Positions 995-9,417 of a stretch of DNA of 64,000 nucleotides are shown here, in pieces. Location of the stretch: sequence record OP352608. One strand, 5' to 3'. The notes beneath the pieces were generated by a model. The model was not told where the DNA came from. It ran no database searches and worked only from the letters and a program-made list of their open reading frames with translations. Numbering within the stretch: the first letter of the stretch is position 1; each line of letters starts with the position of its first letter. Both the position numbers and the translations under genes were made by a program. Source of the DNA: Escherichia phage vB_EcoM_SP13.

Positions 995-2455
995 ATGAAT
1001 AAAATATTAACACATAATTGGAAATTCATGTACCAGTTGAATCCTGCTTTAAAAGAAGTCTGGAAGACAAAAGCGCGATACAAAGTAATATACGGCGGTC
1101 GTGCATCTTCCAAATCGCACGATGCCGCTGGTTTTGCTATTTATTTGGCGGCAAACTTCAAATTAAAATTCCTTTGCGTTCGACAATTCCAGAACAAAAT
1201 TTCTGAATCTGTATATACTCTATTAAAAGACAAAATAGAGATTTCTGATTTCAAAGATGAGTTCAATTTATTAAAGAACTCTATTGAACATAAAAGAACT
1301 AAATCTGAATTTCTATTTTACGGTATCGCACGTAACGTTGATGAAATTAAATCAACAGAAGGTGTTGACGTCCTTTGGCTGGAAGAAGCGCACGCGCTTA
1401 CTGAAGAACAGTGGGACATTATTGAGCCGACAATCCGTAAAGAAGGGTCCGAAATATGGATCATCTTTAACCCCGATGAAGAGGCCGATTTTGTCTACCA
1501 AAACTTTGTTATGCGACCGCCGAAGAATGCCATTGTTAAAAAGATAAACTGGCAAGACAATCCATTTTTGTCGCAAACGATGCTGGACGTTATTGCAGGC
1601 ATGTACGAGCGCGACCCGAAAAAGGCAGAGCACGTTTATGGCGGCGTGCCGAAGACTGGCGGCGATAAATCTGTAATCAACCGCGCATTCGTTAAGGCCG
1701 CGCTTAATCTCCACAAACACCCTACGCTGGGATGGAGTTTGTCAGGGTCTAACCGTATAGGCTTTGACGTAGCGGACGATGGCGACGACCTTAACGCCAC
1801 TGCATTCGTTACAGGAAACGTATTGCGCGGCATCAAGACATGGGAAGGTCTGGAAGATGAATTGTTAAAATCGGCAAGCGGAGTTTGGAAAGATGCGCTT
1901 ACATTTGGCGCTTCTATAACTTATGACGCCATCGGTGTCGGCGCTTTTGCTGGTTCAAAATTTGATGAACTGAACGAGTATGCAATACATGAAAATCCAT
2001 CATTTCCAAGAATCGAATTTAATGCGTTCAATGCGCAAGGGTCTGTTGATGATCCTGATGACGTTTTTCTTGAATTACCACACGTTGAAATACTCAATAA
2101 AGACCATTTCGCAAACATAAAAGCGCAAAAGTGGACTGAAATTGCAGAGAGATTCAGAAAGACATACGAATATGCAACTGGGCAAGCCGTATATCCGACT
2201 GATGAGTTGATTTCAATCGACACCGATGGCATACCAGAACTTGGAATTCCAGCTTGGACTACTGAAGAGATTGAGACGTTTCTTTTTGAGATGTCAGCGC
2301 CGCGCAAAGATACGTCTGTTCTTGGCAAGTTCAAAGTTGAATCTAAAAAGGATATGGCAAAGCGTGGAGTCAAATCACCTAACAAAGCGGACGCGGCAAT
2401 CATGGCATTAATGAAACCAATCGTTGCAGCATCCGGCTTCTTCTCTAACCTTTAA
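995..2455 (+). CDS. terL: terminase large subunit
   Basis: N-terminal Walker A-like YGGRASSKS after LNPALKE, typical of phage large terminases; 486 aa; sits ahead of portal. Start could instead be ATG 1028 because a TTGATA-N18-TATAAT box abuts ATG 995. Confidence 0.8.
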   Translation: MNKILTHNWKFMYQLNPALKEVWKTKARYKVIYGGRASSKSHDAAGFAIYLAANFKLKFLCVRQFQNKISESVYTLLKDKIEISDFKDEFNLLKNSIEHKRTKSEFLFYGIARNVDEIKSTEGVDVLWLEEAHALTEEQWDIIEPTIRKEGSEIWIIFNPDEEADFVYQNFVMRPPKNAIVKKINWQDNPFLSQTMLDVIAGMYERDPKKAEHVYGGVPKTGGDKSVINRAFVKAALNLHKHPTLGWSLSGSNRIGFDVADDGDDLNATAFVTGNVLRGIKTWEGLEDELLKSASGVWKDALTFGASITYDAIGVGAFAGSKFDELNEYAIHENPSFPRIEFNAFNAQGSVDDPDDVFLELPHVEILNKDHFANIKAQKWTEIAERFRKTYEYATGQAVYPTDELISIDTDGIPELGIPAWTTEEIETFLFEMSAPRKDTSVLGKFKVESKKDMAKRGVKSPNKADAAIMALMKPIVAASGFFSNL

Positions 2456-2458
2456 CAA

Positions 2459-2698
2459 TCAAAGCATTCCGTGCTGAAGGTCTAGTTTTCTTGCAGCAAA
2501 TGACCTGGCACGGAATCGCTTACCCGCCCTTACTGCCTGCCGAATCTTCTTTTGCATACACTTACGGTCAAAATCGTTGCGGTCAACGGCTTCGAGTAAA
2601 TCCCGACGCAAAGCACCTAGTGTCGCCTTTTCGGATAATTCTACGCCCAGCGCGGCTGCAACGTCTTTCAAAACATCGAGTTCGGTTAACGTTCTCAT
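2459..2698 (-). CDS. hypothetical protein (basic, 79 aa)
   Basis: ORF convergent with terL; 4-bp ATGA overlap with upstream minus-strand gene. Confidence 0.4.
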   Translation of the reverse strand: MRTLTELDVLKDVAAALGVELSEKATLGALRRDLLEAVDRNDFDRKCMQKKIRQAVRAGKRFRARSFAARKLDLQHGML

Positions 2699-3111
2699 TT
2701 GATAATCCCCTTGATGTCTGATTCTGCCATAAAGATTGGAGTGCCGCCGCCAGGAACAATCGAGCGCGTTACTTTGTCGAACATATCGTTTTCTTCAACT
2801 TGAATACGATAAAATTTATTCTTGGATGAAGATGGGCACAATTCCATAAATTTACCAATGCCGCGAACGCATTCATCTTCAAAGTATACTGTTTCACCTT
2901 GAATGGATTCGATGTTTTCAACCGGATACACCTTGCGACCTAAAAGCCATTCATCCATGGTCGCCTGCAACACGCTTCTCGCATCCAAAATCCAAGGGTC
3001 AACTGTGGCACCTTCATATCGCGCAGCAGTGGCTTTTGCCAGCTCTTCATATTCGCATACGTTTACTACTTCGCCTTGATGAAGGACGACAAATACAATT
3101 GTTGTGCTCAT
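2695..3111 (-). CDS. hypothetical protein (138 aa)
   Basis: ORF with perfect AAGGAG Shine-Dalgarno 6 nt before ATG at 3111; opposite strand to flanking terL and portal. Confidence 0.5.
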   Translation of the reverse strand: MSTTIVFVVLHQGEVVNVCEYEELAKATAARYEGATVDPWILDARSVLQATMDEWLLGRKVYPVENIESIQGETVYFEDECVRGIGKFMELCPSSSKNKFYRIQVEENDMFDKVTRSIVPGGGTPIFMAESDIKGIIK

Positions 3112-3273: not shown

Positions 3274-5649
3274 ATGAAAATTCTTGGCATAAAACTCTGG
3301 GAGAAGACGCGACCAGAAGCCGAACCAGCGGAGATGCCGCCAGGCGACCCATTGGCACCGTTTGAACGCCTTGAAAGGCGCGGCAGCGGTCAACGCTGGG
3401 AAAAGACTGAAAGCAATCGACCGACCTTTAAAACGGTTGATGACTTCCCTTTATATGAGCCTGATATTAACGGGGACGGTGTTGCAATCATCAAAGGTCG
3501 CTCAGTAGATTCAGCAACCGTATCCAAAAAAGTTATGGATAATGCCTTAAAGAACATCAGTTCAGAAGGGCAGGTGAATCCATACACAGTGCCTATTCAG
3601 TTGCAAAACTGGTACTTATCGCAATCATTTATCGGATATCAAGCTTGCGCCATCATCGCGCAGCACTGGCTAGTGAACAAGGCTTGTTCCATGGTAGGCC
3701 GCGATGCGGTCCGTAAAGGCTGGGAAGTCAAATCCAGTTCTGAGTCGGAATTGTCAGTACAGGCCAGCGAACGCTTAAAGCAAATTGATAAAGAATTTAA
3801 CATCAAAGAGCACTTAGTTGAAGCCGAACGATTCAAGAATATTTTTGGCATCCGCGTCATCATATTTGATGTGCGCAGTGATGACCCAGAATATTATAGC
3901 AAACCTTTTAACATCGATGGTGTGACAAAAGGGTCTTATAAGGGAATCATTCAGGTTGACCCTTATTGGATGATGCCATTCTTGACGTCTGAAAACACTG
4001 CAGACCCTGCGTCACAGCATTTCTATGATCCAGAATACTGGGTGATCAGCGGACAGCGTTATCATCGCAGCCACCTAATCATCTTGCGCAACGATGAGCC
4101 AGCTGATATTCTCAAGCCGACTTATATCTACGGCGGCATTCCTCTGACTCAGCAGATTTATGAACGTATCTATGCCGCTGAACGTACCGCTAACGAAGCG
4201 CCATTGCTGGCGATGTCTAAGCGTACAACCACGCTTCGGACCGACGTTGACAAGGCGATTGCCAATGAGCGGTCGTTTGCCGAACGTCTGATGATGTGGA
4301 TTAAGTACCGCGACAACTATGCAGTCAAAGTGCTTGGTCAGAAAGAAGAGATGGACCAGTTCGACATCAACTTGTCAGACTTCGACAGCATCATCATGAA
4401 CCAGTACCAGCTGGTGGCCGCAATCGCAAAAGTTCCGTCGACAAAACTGTTAGGGACGTCACCTAAAGGCTTTAACGCCACTGGTGAGTTCGAAATGGTC
4501 AGCTATCACGAAGAATTGGAGACTTGTCAACAGCACGATTTGACGAAGATTCTTGACCGCCACTATAAAATCCTTTTGAAGTCTGAAGGCGTGGAAGTCG
4601 ACGTTAAAGTGGCATGGGAGCCAGTTGGTTCACTTACTGCTACTCAGCTTGCAGAGATTAACGACAAACGAGCGAATACTGGCAAGACTCTCATTGATGC
4701 TGGCGTAATCTCCCCTGATGAAGAGCGCGACCGCATCAAGGACGACAAAAACAGCGGCTACAACCGTTTGCCGGAAGATGCAGCAGAAGAAACCCCAGGG
4801 ATGTCTCCAGAGAATATGGCACTGCTTGGCAAGTCTGCTGGTGAAGTTCTGCAAGGCAAGGCCGATATTGAACAGGCCAAAGCTGATGTTGTCAAGATGG
4901 GCGGCCAGTTCTATAGCGAGACTGGTATTATGCCGGAAGGTGCCGCGCGTGGTGAGTTGGCGGAAAACCCTGACAGGGCACCAGTTGAGATTAACATGGA
5001 TGATACCGATGACGAATCAAGCCATCACGTTGATGTCCTAACGCAACTGAAAGAAGGTCTGGAGGGTATTGCTGACTATTACCTTAAAGAAGGTCAGGAC
5101 GTGGATTTTGACCCTCAAAAAGATGCAAGGTCGGTGCAACCGTCTACGCTTCCAAGCGTAAAAGGAAATGTCGTGAACTTGCGACACAATGTAGGGAAGA
5201 TGGATGCTGCATCGCTGCCTAAGATGAAGTTGCACGGGATGATTCTTGGTATTGAGAATCCTCGCAACAGCATTCGCAGGGGTAACAGCCTTGATGGTGA
5301 ATGGGCAGTTAAGATGCCGCACCATTACGGATTTATCAAAGGCACCAAGGGCGCTGATGGTGATGAAGTCGACTGCTTTGTTGGACCAAACATGAAGTCG
5401 CCTAAAGTATTCATCATTAACCAAAATGATAATTATTCTGGCGAATTTGATGAACACAAGTGTATGCTTGGATTTGATTCAGCAGAAGAAGCGAAAGAAG
5501 CTTATCAGGCGTCATTTGGTAACGGTTGGAACGGATTTGACTCAATCCACGAATTGGATGTAAACTCATTCAAGGAGTGGTTGAAGGGTGATTGCTCTCA
5601 AGCATATGGAGCACTCAACAATCCTACTAATTCACCGAAGCAAGGTTGA
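3274..5649 (+). CDS. portal protein (putative) with C-terminal inorganic-pyrophosphatase-like domain
   Basis: Large ORF directly after terL; AGGTGG RBS 8 nt before ATG 3274; C-terminus carries YGFIKGTKGADGDEVDC, which fits the family I PPase signature D-[SGDN]-D-[PE]-[LIVMF]-D-[LIVMGAC]. Confidence 0.55.
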   Translation: MKILGIKLWEKTRPEAEPAEMPPGDPLAPFERLERRGSGQRWEKTESNRPTFKTVDDFPLYEPDINGDGVAIIKGRSVDSATVSKKVMDNALKNISSEGQVNPYTVPIQLQNWYLSQSFIGYQACAIIAQHWLVNKACSMVGRDAVRKGWEVKSSSESELSVQASERLKQIDKEFNIKEHLVEAERFKNIFGIRVIIFDVRSDDPEYYSKPFNIDGVTKGSYKGIIQVDPYWMMPFLTSENTADPASQHFYDPEYWVISGQRYHRSHLIILRNDEPADILKPTYIYGGIPLTQQIYERIYAAERTANEAPLLAMSKRTTTLRTDVDKAIANERSFAERLMMWIKYRDNYAVKVLGQKEEMDQFDINLSDFDSIIMNQYQLVAAIAKVPSTKLLGTSPKGFNATGEFEMVSYHEELETCQQHDLTKILDRHYKILLKSEGVEVDVKVAWEPVGSLTATQLAEINDKRANTGKTLIDAGVISPDEERDRIKDDKNSGYNRLPEDAAEETPGMSPENMALLGKSAGEVLQGKADIEQAKADVVKMGGQFYSETGIMPEGAARGELAENPDRAPVEINMDDTDDESSHHVDVLTQLKEGLEGIADYYLKEGQDVDFDPQKDARSVQPSTLPSVKGNVVNLRHNVGKMDAASLPKMKLHGMILGIENPRNSIRRGNSLDGEWAVKMPHHYGFIKGTKGADGDEVDCFVGPNMKSPKVFIINQNDNYSGEFDEHKCMLGFDSAEEAKEAYQASFGNGWNGFDSIHELDVNSFKEWLKGDCSQAYGALNNPTNSPKQG

Positions 5650-5650
5650 T

Positions 5651-6502
5651 ATGGCTTTTAAAGCTTCGAAAAAACGTGAACGCCGCTCACCCGATAGAAT
5701 CGGGCGCGGCAGTCCGATAATCCCATCCAACGCAATCGCGATGGCCTATCGTCGTGAGATGAAAGGTCTTTGCTATGCGATGATTGACGACTATCAAGAA
5801 GGAATTGCTGAGTGGCTTGAAAAGAAGCAGGTGAAAAAATTCTTTGCGCAAGACTCTGCTGATTCAACTTTTCAAACCTTGATGAAGCGACTGCAACTGA
5901 AATGGGCAAAAGCTTTCGCCCGTGTCGGGTCAAAGATTGCCGCAGATTTCATCAAGTCAGTTGAAAAGGGTGCCACTTCTGCTACATTTGCAAGTCTTAA
6001 ATCTGCAGGAATAGAAGCGCCAAAAGCCACATATAATAAATTCGTTGAGAACACTCTTAAAACAAGCGAGACGTTCAACACGACTTTAGTGACTAAGGTT
6101 GGCGAGGATATTCACAACAGGGTGTACGAAGCGGTGATGCTTTCGCTGACTTCGCCAGACCCAGCGCAACAAGGCACGTCCGGTATTCAGGCGGCATTAA
6201 GGAATGTAAAACACTTCTCTGCAAAGCGCGTAGACCTTATTGCAAAAGACCAAACGAGCAAACTTTATTGCGTATTAAGTGATGAAAGGATGCGACAGAA
6301 TGGAGTCGAGGAATTTGAGTGGGCGCATTCAGGAGCAGGCAAAGAGCCGCGAATATCGCATGAGCATGTCGATGGAATGAGATTCAAGCTTGATGACAAA
6401 CGCTTATGGGAAGTAGGTGGAGAACTTAAGTTCAAAAAGGGTGACATCGGTCCTCCTGGATGGGCGATACACTGCAAGTGCAGGAAAATACCAATTATCT
6501 GA
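5651..6502 (+). CDS. head morphogenesis protein (MuF/SPP1 gp7-like, putative)
   Basis: Position immediately after portal, size about 280 aa; assignment mainly by synteny. Confidence 0.45.
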   Translation: MAFKASKKRERRSPDRIGRGSPIIPSNAIAMAYRREMKGLCYAMIDDYQEGIAEWLEKKQVKKFFAQDSADSTFQTLMKRLQLKWAKAFARVGSKIAADFIKSVEKGATSATFASLKSAGIEAPKATYNKFVENTLKTSETFNTTLVTKVGEDIHNRVYEAVMLSLTSPDPAQQGTSGIQAALRNVKHFSAKRVDLIAKDQTSKLYCVLSDERMRQNGVEEFEWAHSGAGKEPRISHEHVDGMRFKLDDKRLWEVGGELKFKKGDIGPPGWAIHCKCRKIPII

Positions 6503-8001: not shown

Positions 8002-9417
8002 ATGCAAACGGCACGCGAAATTGACAAAAATGGATTCTTGACGATTATGGGTTGTCCGATTTCGTCATTTGGCATTTTTGATTATTCTGCTGGTCAAGTT
8101 GGTCTTGATGGTGATCCGAATCGCATCGTAAAAGTCTATCGCCCTGAGTCAGCGGTGAAAGACCCCGAAGCGATAGATTCATTCAAAAATATCCCTTTCA
8201 TCGACAATCACGAAATGCTTTCTGGATTTGAAGGTGATGAGGATAACACAGCACCCGAAGAGTATGGCGTTGATGGCGTTCTGACTGGCAATGTTTATTA
8301 TGACAAGCCATGGATGCGCGGCGACCTTAAAGTGTTTAGCCGTCGTCTGAAGAAGGCCATTGATTCTGGAAAGGTTGACTTGTCTTTGGGCTATGACTGT
8401 GAATTCATCATACAGTCTGGAGAGTTTGACGGGCAGCCGTATGAAGTGGTGCAGACAACTCTTCGCGGCAACCACATTGCTCTCGTGGACGTTGGTCGAG
8501 TACCAGGTGCACGGGTGCTGGATGGTCGTTGCTTTGACCATCTTTGTTTGACGACTGTAACACCATCCAACGAGGATTTAGACATGCCAAAACCGTTAAA
8601 AGGTAAAGCGCGTGATAATGCTGTTGAACAGCTGAAATCACTGATCCCTGCGCTCGAACAATTTCTGAACGAAGAGAGTACTGAAGCTGCTCATCAGGAC
8701 GAAGTTGAAGTGAAAGCAGAAGAGAAGGACTCAACCGAAAATCGTGAAGAAGTAATGGTTGATCCAGAAGTCAAGGCAGAAGCAGAAGAAACCCCAGAAG
8801 GTGAAGAGAAGTTTGAAGTTGAAACTGAATCTCACGCTGGCGGCGAACTTCCGCAATTGATCAGCCAAATCGAAGCACTTATTGCAAAACTGAAAGGTGG
8901 CGCGGTAGGTGATGAAGAAGAAGTTGAAGCCGAAGTCAAAGACGAAGAAGAAGTTGAAGTCAAGGCTGAAGATGTATCACCTTGCGACAAAGCTGAAGAT
9001 GTGGTTAGCGGCCTGCAAAACAGCAACGTAAAGGGGGCTTCGGTCGAAAAAGATGACAAACCGACAAAAGCGGCGAAAGCGTCGCCAGGTCCAGCAAAAG
9101 GGGAACACTCAATGGCATCTGATTCAGCAGTTGCTGCTTTCTACGCTGATTCTGCTCGTAAGAATAGCCTCTACCAGCGCCTGTCTAAAGTTGTTGGTGC
9201 CTTTGATCATGCAACTATGGACTCCAAGTCCGTAGCGAAATATGGCGCTAAAAAGTTAGGCTTGAAGTGCGTTGATGGTGCTGAGTTTGACGTGGTGGAT
9301 AATTATCTGCGCGGCGTTGAGCACGGTCAGAAACAGCGTGTAGTCGCAAAACAAAAGGCCGCTGCGGATTCTGCAGCAACTGACGAAGCATTTGAAGCTT
9401 GGTTGAAAGGGGAATAA
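8002..9417 (+). CDS. prohead protease / scaffold fusion protein (putative)
   Basis: N-terminal about 190 aa resemble phage prohead protease-like domains (RGNHIALVDVGR), followed by a long acidic E/K-rich coiled-coil region typical of scaffolds; lies before the capsid gene. Confidence 0.5.
   Translation: MQTAREIDKNGFLTIMGCPISSFGIFDYSAGQVGLDGDPNRIVKVYRPESAVKDPEAIDSFKNIPFIDNHEMLSGFEGDEDNTAPEEYGVDGVLTGNVYYDKPWMRGDLKVFSRRLKKAIDSGKVDLSLGYDCEFIIQSGEFDGQPYEVVQTTLRGNHIALVDVGRVPGARVLDGRCFDHLCLTTVTPSNEDLDMPKPLKGKARDNAVEQLKSLIPALEQFLNEESTEAAHQDEVEVKAEEKDSTENREEVMVDPEVKAEAEETPEGEEKFEVETESHAGGELPQLISQIEALIAKLKGGAVGDEEEVEAEVKDEEEVEVKAEDVSPCDKAEDVVSGLQNSNVKGASVEKDDKPTKAAKASPGPAKGEHSMASDSAVAAFYADSARKNSLYQRLSKVVGAFDHATMDSKSVAKYGAKKLGLKCVDGAEFDVVDNYLRGVEHGQKQRVVAKQKAAADSAATDEAFEAWLKGE

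Follow-up and report, generated by a model that had tools for sequence, protein, structure and literature searches.

A phage-type pyrophosphatase-like domain at the C-terminus of a Wifcevirus portal protein

Why does a portal protein end in a sequence that resembles an inorganic pyrophosphatase (PPase), and what could such a domain do in a virion? The question is raised by one gene in the 64,000-nucleotide stretch of Escherichia phage vB_EcoM_SP13 DNA that was analysed here (record OP352608; the window). Phages of the PB1-like and Wifcevirus groups are candidates for phage therapy, and virion structures at high resolution are available. In these structures nothing is seen of about 240 residues at the portal C-terminus, which encode a conserved, virion-resident, enzyme-like domain; the Pa193 structural paper has no mention of a pyrophosphatase domain, and the C-terminal domain is likewise undescribed in passages of the E217 paper (PMC10329688, PMC11456595). 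The finding itself changes little, because a Pfam entry, the UniProt naming and a 2017 report of the portal fusion already exist. Its remaining value is practical and lies in these candidate therapy phages and the unmodelled C-terminus of their portals, which may bring a pre-made enzyme into the cell.

Portal gene and family of its C-terminal domain

The portal gene (Table 1) is translated in one frame of 791 codons with the sole stop at its end, and its sequence agrees at 100% identity with the portal gene annotated in Escherichia phage F13. A match to PHROG 4660 covers the full portal length. The preliminary description had read the pyrophosphatase-like part as continuous in frame with the portal, and this is borne out by the open frame, by the identity with F13 and by about 350 phage records with the same portal-InPase architecture, from phages that infect hosts of seven or more genera. 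An AGGTGG ribosome-binding site lies 8 nt 5' of the ATG at 3274. A search for an internal start that could yield a free InPase protein found no ATG preceded by a convincing ribosome-binding site in the range aa 520-660. The gene belongs to a head module, with the large terminase gene on its 5' side and the MuF-like, DUF2213, cement and major capsid genes on its 3' side. Scans for tRNA and Rfam families gave no matches in the whole 64 kb window, and the signal of a promoter and terminator scan around the portal gene was equal to background. The phage that carries this gene is a Wifcevirus, and its relatives include the Pseudomonas PB1-like phages.

Table 1. Coordinates of the portal gene, its parts and two neighbouring genes in the window
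Feature	Position	Strand	Basis
Large terminase subunit (context)	1028..2455	+	Pfam Terminase_3, E 3e-37; F13_0038
Portal gene with C-terminal InPase domain	3274..5649	+	791 aa + stop; F13_0041; single ORF
Portal core, Pfam Phage_portal_3 (aa 122-468)	3637..4677	+	PF06381, E 4e-88
Barrel helix, then flexible linker that is acidic and poorly conserved (aa 469-648)	4678..5217	+	composition, PB1 comparison
InPase domain, family I pyrophosphatase-like fold	5218..5586	+	Pfam PF18823; aa 649-771
DGDEVDC, metal-binding Asp triad motif (D695, D697, D700)	5356..5376	+	aligned to E. coli D65/D67/D70
DEHK motif (D726 E727 H728 K729), candidate second acidic/basic catalytic cluster	5449..5460	+	family conservation
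MuF-like minor head protein, directly 3' of portal, outside fusion	5651..6502	+	Pfam Phage_Mu_F, E 4e-7; F13_0042

The core is a member of Phage_portal_3 (295.8 bits, threshold 33.8) and shares 65% identity with the PB1 portal core. Residues 469-648 have a net charge of -18 by composition, and the linker shares 27% identity with that of PB1, with variation in length, compared with 59-65% for the flanking domains. The orthologous gp19 of phages E217 and Pa193 shares about 51% identity with the protein as a whole, 65% within the core and 59% within InPase, and its barrel also projects into the head, whereas its linker differs from that of the E. coli phage in sequence and length.

The C-terminal domain matched Pfam InPase (PF18823) with 156.6 bits against a gathering cut-off of 26.8, over model positions 12-135 of 135 (domain E-value 4e-46). 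The classical PPase family PF00719 gave 18.3 bits with the full protein and 20.8 bits with the C-terminal fragment, below its cut-off of 23.5, over only about 25 residues that fall on the same motif as the InPase match. Apart from portals, every PDB sequence match was a family I PPase, and the predicted fold of the domain matches family I PPases only, at 12-20% identity. Sequence comparison confirms that the portal C-terminus carries a real pyrophosphatase-like domain. The PPase-like reading of the preliminary description agrees with both the profile searches and the predicted fold; its label "E. coli-type" should be dropped, as the domain sits in a phage-specific InPase branch, and its start at 5230 was slightly late compared with the Pfam start (nt 5218, aa 649).

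The preliminary description had also been unable to place a portal-borne PPase module in a known family, and in this it does not hold. The domain has a named Pfam entry, and both the phage-specific branch and its fusion to portals have been known since 2017, when Iyer, Burroughs, Anand, de Souza and Aravind defined the branch and explicitly noted the fusion (J Bacteriol, PMC5512222), for example in BcepF1.124 (YP_001039808.1). The present portal is a "simple fusion" case of these authors and not a polyvalent protein proper (PMC5512222); polyvalent proteins combine multiple effector domains in a single polypeptide delivered by the virion, often together with a processing peptidase. It shares with the InPase of polyvalent proteins and BcepF1 the family, the order of an N-terminal portal and a C-terminal InPase, the head-module context and the invariant residues. 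We see nothing substantively different in it, and it is another member of the family, in an E. coli Wifcevirus; the AQKEAGNY-type motif that is found before most polyvalent-protein copies is lacking upstream. UniProt names the relatives "inorganic pyrophosphatase domain-containing protein".

The family is abundant, with more than 11,000 sequence clusters. The nearest relatives of the portal domain are all phage InPase domains; of their 11,274 cluster representatives many belong to proteins of 1000-6400 aa, and most family members reside in virion-packaged polyvalent proteins. In some relatives, an ADP-ribosyltransferase or a topoisomerase IB is appended after InPase. A Pfam profile search of the portal protein found the portal and InPase domains only, with no peptidase domain. 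Between this phage and phage Mansfield, the InPase codons have 30 synonymous and 2 nonsynonymous differences, and the resulting dN/dS of 0.011 indicates purifying selection on the domain.

Active-site correspondence with family I pyrophosphatases

The segment PHHYGFIKGTKGADGDEVDCFVGP (aa 682-705, nt 5317-5388) contains DGDEVDC, whose position had been given exactly and corresponds to aa 695-701. Its earlier match to the PROSITE-type signature D-[SGDN]-D-[PE]-[LIVMF]-D-[LIVMGAC] was right. It is the sole occurrence in six frames of the 64 kb, and because 0.007 occurrences are expected by composition, it is not a chance match. In fitting the classical signature, the portal domain is like only 29 of 168 InPase-family domains. 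With hhalign, Y685/G686 fall on Y55/G56 and D695/D697/D700 fall on D65/D67/D70 of E. coli PPase (probability 89-92%), so the suspected metal-binding aspartates do align. Among the family members, D695 is conserved in 166/168, D697 in 158/168 and D700 in 168/168. The family residues E661, R668, G670, G675, W677, Y685, G686, D695, D697, D700, G704, Q717, D726, E727, K729, G733, A740 and Y744 are all present in the portal domain, and each is kept in at least 94% of the 168 domains. Within DEHK, the conservation is 167/168 (D726), 168/168 (E727), 155/167 (H728) and 166/167 (K729); judged from strand order only, this motif may be the counterpart of E. coli D102/K104.

Compared with E. coli Ppa (1INO/1FAJ, PF00719), the domain has the same OB-like beta-barrel fold and YG...DGDxxD core, and the first-strand glutamate of IE(I/N)P is probably shared. 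The portal domain is tethered to a portal and is not a free hexamer like Ppa, it falls below the PF00719 threshold, and it is about 9 residues shorter between the equivalents of K29 and Y55 (17 residues for R668-Y685, versus 26 in E. coli). According to Iyer et al. 2017 (PMC5512222), InPase domains are without the beta-hairpin that classical PPases have inserted behind their first core strand, and the shorter spacing in the sequence appears consistent with this deletion.

The rest of the active site is less clear. The PPase resemblance that had been noted for AEEAKEAYQASF (aa 737-748, nt 5482-5517) is weak, being a local hhalign match to E. coli G154-E170 with P 0.009. When the C-terminal half was aligned separately, the only match, weak and local, fell on helix alphaB of the E. 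coli enzyme; it conflicts with the mapping by secondary-structure order, and the counterparts of D97, D102, K104, Y141 and K142 were therefore left unassigned. Equivalents of E20 and K29 (as R668) were aligned by motif only, with low confidence; the position of E31 is an invariant Gly in the family, and no conserved counterpart was seen for R43, Y51 or K142. When hhalign was extended (mact 0.05), its alignment covered the whole domain, but the confidence was zero beyond the core. To obtain a diverse PPase profile, E. coli Ppa was used as a query, which brought up relatives of at least 82% identity only. The profile is shallow, and the residue mapping outside YG...DGDxxD is unreliable.

The domain in the virion

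Published mass spectrometry of CsCl-purified virions of the 97%-identical phage vB_Eco4M-7 contains peptides spanning the InPase domain, so the domain is present in purified particles. They include GADGDEVDCFVGPNMK and the C-terminal peptide. Peptides of the N-terminal part and the linker were found too, and those on either side of every junction belong to one protein group. With regard to portal processing, the vB_Eco4M-7 list holds fully tryptic peptides only, and the KPP12 paper sequenced three other virion bands, none of them the portal.

The homologous gp19 portals of E217 and Pa193 were solved in situ as dodecamers (PDB 9b41 and related; PMC10329688, PMC11456595). Residues about 94-528 of 765 were modelled and residues 529-765 have no cryo-EM density, for E217 according to passages of the paper. 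Because density ends at residue 528 in these homologues, we place the InPase domain inside the head at the end of a flexible linker, disordered relative to the portal ring.

Proposed role and competing explanations

We propose that a dodecameric Phage_portal_3-type portal points its crown/barrel helix into the head, and that its C-terminus continues as a flexible acidic linker of about 120-180 residues and then as the InPase domain. Each virion would hold twelve copies of a predicted Mg2+-dependent phosphoanhydride hydrolase, inside the capsid by the DNA exit channel. We give this reading, including the cargo role that follows, a probability of about 0.8. By analogy with MuF-borne and polyvalent effectors, the domain may be active and may serve as cargo that is ready-made when infection begins. 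It might remove PPi and so pull early nucleotidyl-transfer reactions, or might cleave a pyrophosphate nucleotide that is a host alarm or immune signal. In the literature, we found no published enzyme assay of any InPase-family domain.

T4 Alt and MuF-borne effectors are virion-packaged enzymes that are injected with the DNA. The portal would resemble T4 Alt and the MuF/SPP1 gp7-type proteins in that the head holds an enzyme borne by a portal-associated or head-internal carrier, but here the carrier is the portal subunit itself, which stays in the capsid. To reach the cytoplasm, the domain would have to be cut from the portal by proteolysis, as the tail (about 1300 Å in the related phage Pa193) is far longer than the tether. 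The ADP-ribosyltransferase and topoisomerase IB extensions of relatives fit with the portal C-terminus as a cargo arm.

A different possibility, which we consider unlikely, is that the domain is not an inorganic pyrophosphatase and is clipped from the portal as the head matures and ejected together with the DNA as a counter-defence enzyme, destroying a pyrophosphate-containing nucleotide that a host immune system uses as signal or substrate. A remodelled leaving-group pocket, without evident R43/K142 equivalents, would explain a new substrate in that case, and the portal C-terminus would be a general cargo arm, in line with the extensions just mentioned.

Delivery itself is the point at issue if the domain works only in the cytoplasm or procapsid, while the portal is unassembled or being assembled (for example in clearing PPi from late replication and nucleotide metabolism), and then stays in the capsid as an undelivered passenger. 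No evidence of cleavage was found in the published peptide data, the N-terminal, linker and C-terminal peptides are all found in virions, and besides the short tether, the Pa193 tail-tube lumen of about 37 Å would be tight for a folded 15 kDa domain. However, a protein made late, with 12 copies per particle, would be a strange vehicle for supplying a metabolic enzyme, and the toxin-type ADP-ribosyltransferase or topoisomerase IB on the arm of relatives, as well as the polyvalent proteins in which most family members are packaged, follow a delivered-cargo logic. We hold this explanation to be unlikely.

It is less probable still that the domain is a dead structural module, a head or plug element that would bind Mg2+ or the phosphates of DNA and would help to organise or retain the last-packaged DNA end above the portal barrel. 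This would suit its place inside the head beside the DNA-filled barrel, the several classical phosphate-binding residues without evident counterpart and the lack of reported activity for the family. But the triad, E661, R668, D726/E727/K729 and Y744 are invariant in 168 diverse domains of unrelated architectures, which argues for chemistry and not packing. The domain is also invisible in C12 maps and so is not an ordered structural element, and BcepB1A-type portals work without it.

A classical family I PPase (EC 3.6.1.1) captured recently from a bacterial host would account for the exact PROSITE-type signature and for the non-portal PDB matches all being PPases, but this very improbable origin was rejected on the PF00719 shortfall and the phage-only nearest relatives, and the roughly 9 missing residues and the 12-20% identity are also against it. 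Nothing was found in favour of a chance motif, or of two genes being joined artefactually by a frameshift or in the assembly, and this least probable explanation was rejected by the motif expectation, the domain E-value, the conservation in about 350 genomes and the junction peptides.

The InPase domain of the portal protein

Translation of the portal gene gave a single frame of 791 codons without interruption, with AGGTGG placed 8 nt upstream of the ATG at 3274. At 100% identity the gene matches F13_0041, annotated as portal in Escherichia phage F13 (genus Wifcevirus), and it shows 91-97% DNA identity with about 28 other coliphages; its more distant relatives are about 300 Pseudomonas PB1-like phages. 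A preliminary description had noticed that this frame runs continuously into an end resembling family I inorganic pyrophosphatase (PPase), marked by DGDEVDC, and both the frame and the motif coordinates agreed exactly with our translation. Across all six reading frames of the 64 kb window the PROSITE-type family I PPase pattern occurred a single time, against 0.007 occurrences expected from composition, so the match is not due to chance and the observation is real.

Coordinates of the portal gene, its parts and neighbouring features
Feature	Window (nt)	Strand	Portal residues
F13_0039 (79 aa) and F13_0040 (138 aa), functions unassigned	2459-3111	-	
Portal ORF	3274-5649	+	
Phage_portal_3 (core)	3637-4677	+	122-468
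Linker		+	469-648
AAGGA with in-frame GTG and TTG	5158-5181	+	GTG 634, TTG 636
InPase region in mass spectrometry	5164-5640	+	631-789
InPase (PF18823)		+	649-771
PHHYGFIKGTKGADGDEVDCFVGP		+	682-705
DGDEVDC	5356-5376	+	695-701
AEEAKEAYQASF		+	737-748
DUF2213 / COG3566 protein (471 aa)	8002-9417		

Analysis using Pfam models identified Phage_portal_3 (E 4e-88) followed by InPase ('Inorganic Pyrophosphatase', E 4e-46), which scored 156.6 bits (cut-off 26.8) over model positions 12-135 of 135, while classical Pyrophosphatase (PF00719) matched about 25 residues around the motif with 18-21 bits, below its cut-off of 23.5. In PHROGs the whole protein belonged to phrog_4660, and its C-terminal domain recurs within phage proteins of very large size, among them a 'DarB-like antirestriction' family. 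An AlphaFold2 model of residues 633-791, built from an alignment of 18 sequences (mean pLDDT 87, pTM 0.81), predicted a beta-rich core with a helix, a strand and a second helix after it. The best 50 Foldseek matches in PDB were all family I PPases (best E 2.7e-4, TM 0.38-0.48), and the likeness of the predicted fold to classical PPases is moderate yet specific. Among predicted viral structures the best matches were phage proteins with TM up to 0.84, including 'Portal protein [Serratia phage MTx]', several 'Inorganic pyrophosphatase domain-containing protein' entries and polyvalent proteins. The profile scan and the structural comparison, both proposed as checks in the preliminary description, thus support its pyrophosphatase-like interpretation together with the aligned Asp triad. 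That description could not place such a module on a portal in a known family; however, both domain and architecture had already been described. Iyer et al. 2017 defined, in the section 'The InPase domain', a monophyletic type I PPase-like group without the hairpin (PMC5512222). With the F13 portal this family gains one more member, in an architecture that is on record too.

Active-site residues

The E. coli Ppa sequence used for comparison was checked to be equal to PDB 1FAJ/1INO. In the profile alignment the predicted metal-binding Asp triad aligns with that of E. coli PPase. The catalytic apparatus beyond this triad is putative, and hence PPi as substrate is putative likewise.

Counterparts of E. 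coli PPase residues in the portal InPase domain
E. coli PPase	Portal InPase	Basis	Confidence
Y55 / G56	Y685 / G686	hhalign, probability 89-92%	high
D65 / D67 / D70	D695 / D697 / D700	hhalign, probability 89-92%	high
E20 (IEIP)	E661 (IENP)	relaxed alignment	low
K29	R668 (invariant)	placed by motif	putative
E31	invariant glycine	by position	putative
R43, Y51, K142	no conserved counterpart	by position	putative

In an alignment of 168 InPase domains, E661, R668, G670, G675, W677, Y685, G686, D695, D697, D700, G704, Q717, D726, E727, K729, G733, A740 and Y744 were invariant or nearly so, and all these positions are present in the F13 portal protein. Only 29 of the 168 domains fit the PROSITE-type signature; with DGDHVD as the family consensus, the exact match noticed earlier is a minority state. 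From the K29-like to the Y55-like residue the F13 domain counts 17 residues, where E. coli PPase has 26. This shorter spacing fits the statement of Iyer et al. that the InPase branch is without the hairpin (PMC5512222). The invariant DEHK (aa 726-729) opens the strand after the long hairpin, the place occupied by D102 and K104 in E. coli. The sole local profile match in the C-terminal half joined G733-G749 with E. coli G154-E170, helix alphaB (P 0.009); it bears out the earlier impression that AEEAKEAYQASF is PPase-like, but conflicts with a simple order-of-elements mapping of DEHK to D102/K104.

The domain in the virion and its proposed delivery

The cryo-EM models of the orthologous gp19 portals of Pseudomonas phages cover residues 97-528 of 765 in E217 (PMC10329688) and 94-528 of 765 in Pa193 (PMC11456595). 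The portal passages of the E217 paper leave the C-terminal domain undescribed (PMC10329688), the word 'pyrophosphatase' has no occurrence in the Pa193 paper (PMC11456595), and PDB entry 9b41 matches our domain through its deposited sequence only. By homology with these portals, the InPase domain probably sits on a flexible tether within the capsid.

Virion proteomics, another check proposed earlier, was available as published LC-MS/MS of CsCl-purified virions of vB_Eco4M-7, a phage with a 97% identical portal gene. InPase peptides were GNVVNLR (14 PSMs), LHGMILGIENPR (140), MPHHYGFIK (263), GADGDEVDCFVGPNMK (10), VFIINQNDNYSGEFDEHK (7), CMLGFDSAEEAK (7) and the C-terminal GDCSQAYGALNNPTNSPK (11); peptides from the linker and the N-terminus were also listed. 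It means that the domain is translated, extends to the extreme C-terminus and occurs in purified virions. An InPase-family domain whose acidic metal site is conserved is thus built into each virion in twelve copies, at the portal's inner end. The InPase region gave 453 of 559 portal spectra and the core only 6, although candidate tryptic peptides number 18 in the core and 10 in the InPase region; digestion accessibility of the dodecamer ring may be the reason.

We suggest that InPase is a divalent-cation-dependent phosphoanhydride hydrolase, which would serve as pre-made cargo and attack PPi or a pyrophosphate-containing nucleotide early in infection. Iyer et al. proposed that it degrades infection-response nucleotides, or clears PPi and so favours early replication and transcription (PMC5512222); full-text literature searches found no experimental follow-up on InPase or PF18823. 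The domain would need cutting from the portal before reaching the cytoplasm. Stretched out, the linker of about 160 residues would reach roughly 560 A, whereas the Pa193 tail is about 1300 A long with a tube lumen of about 37 A (PMC11456595), so a cytoplasmic InPase would require release from the portal, and the narrow lumen means that it would probably pass at least partly unfolded. T4 Alt is generally assumed to pass in such a state, and we propose the same for the portal InPase. Alternatively, InPase might act solely before or during assembly. It might also be a non-catalytic internal element, but the residue conservation speaks against this. Its substrate, processing and delivery are easily testable in those phages whose virions have been solved at high resolution.

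The DUF2213 / COG3566 protein, whose annotation varies from group to group, is a candidate protease for processing the linker. Just ahead of InPase, AAGGA lies 5-6 nt before in-frame GTG and TTG codons, a weak candidate internal start which might yield a free domain; a search between aa 520 and 660 yielded no internal ATG preceded by a good ribosome-binding site.

Distribution, modularity and gene neighbourhood

The domain matched 474 phage records with tblastn (Pseudomonas 294, Vibrio 70, Escherichia 26, and others), and 350 records carried the full portal-InPase fusion at a coverage of at least 80%. Hosts of the phages with the fusion are Pseudomonas, Escherichia/Shigella, Burkholderia and Xylella, and, from the domain search, also Serratia, Xanthomonas and Salmonella. 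Searching 1.84 billion cluster representatives gave 11,274 proteins at E <=1e-3 (9,407 at E <=1e-10); among the best 147 of the 11,274, 77 exceeded 1000 aa, 49 exceeded 2000 aa and five were portal fusions. In the 168-domain alignment a conserved motif, approximately P-x-x-A-Q-K-E-A-G-N-Y-K-K-G-H (equivalent to aa 638-650), precedes most InPase domains of polyvalent and stand-alone proteins, and it is absent in the portal-fused domains of F13, PB1 and MATE2.

Identity between F13 and PB1 was 65% in the portal core, 52% in the barrel, 27% with indels in the acidic linker (net charge -18) and 59% in InPase. Against phage Mansfield, the InPase codons showed 30 synonymous and 2 nonsynonymous changes (dN/dS 0.011). 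Unlike the F13 portal, the orthologous gp28 of Burkholderia phage BcepB1A (L003:1219-2832; 50% core identity), which shares the gene order TerL / portal / MuF / COG3566, ends at 537 aa just past the barrel, a natural version without linker and InPase. The two parts are thus an add-on dispensable for portal function itself. Two metagenomic cluster representatives, closely related to this portal, carry a third domain after Phage_portal_3 and InPase, an ADP-ribosyltransferase exoenzyme in P0022 (1191 aa) and a bacterial topoisomerase IB in P0026 (1106 aa), so the portal C-terminus behaves as a cargo-carrying arm, and this arm appears to be general.

No tRNA genes and no Rfam families at gathering score were found across window 1-64000. 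The surrounding head module is of standard type, with large terminase (Terminase_3), portal, MuF-like minor head protein, head-fibre-like protein, DUF2213 protein, E217 gp24-type cement protein and major capsid protein. Between the plus-strand terminase and portal, F13_0039 and F13_0040 lie on the minus strand and so break the otherwise co-directional module.
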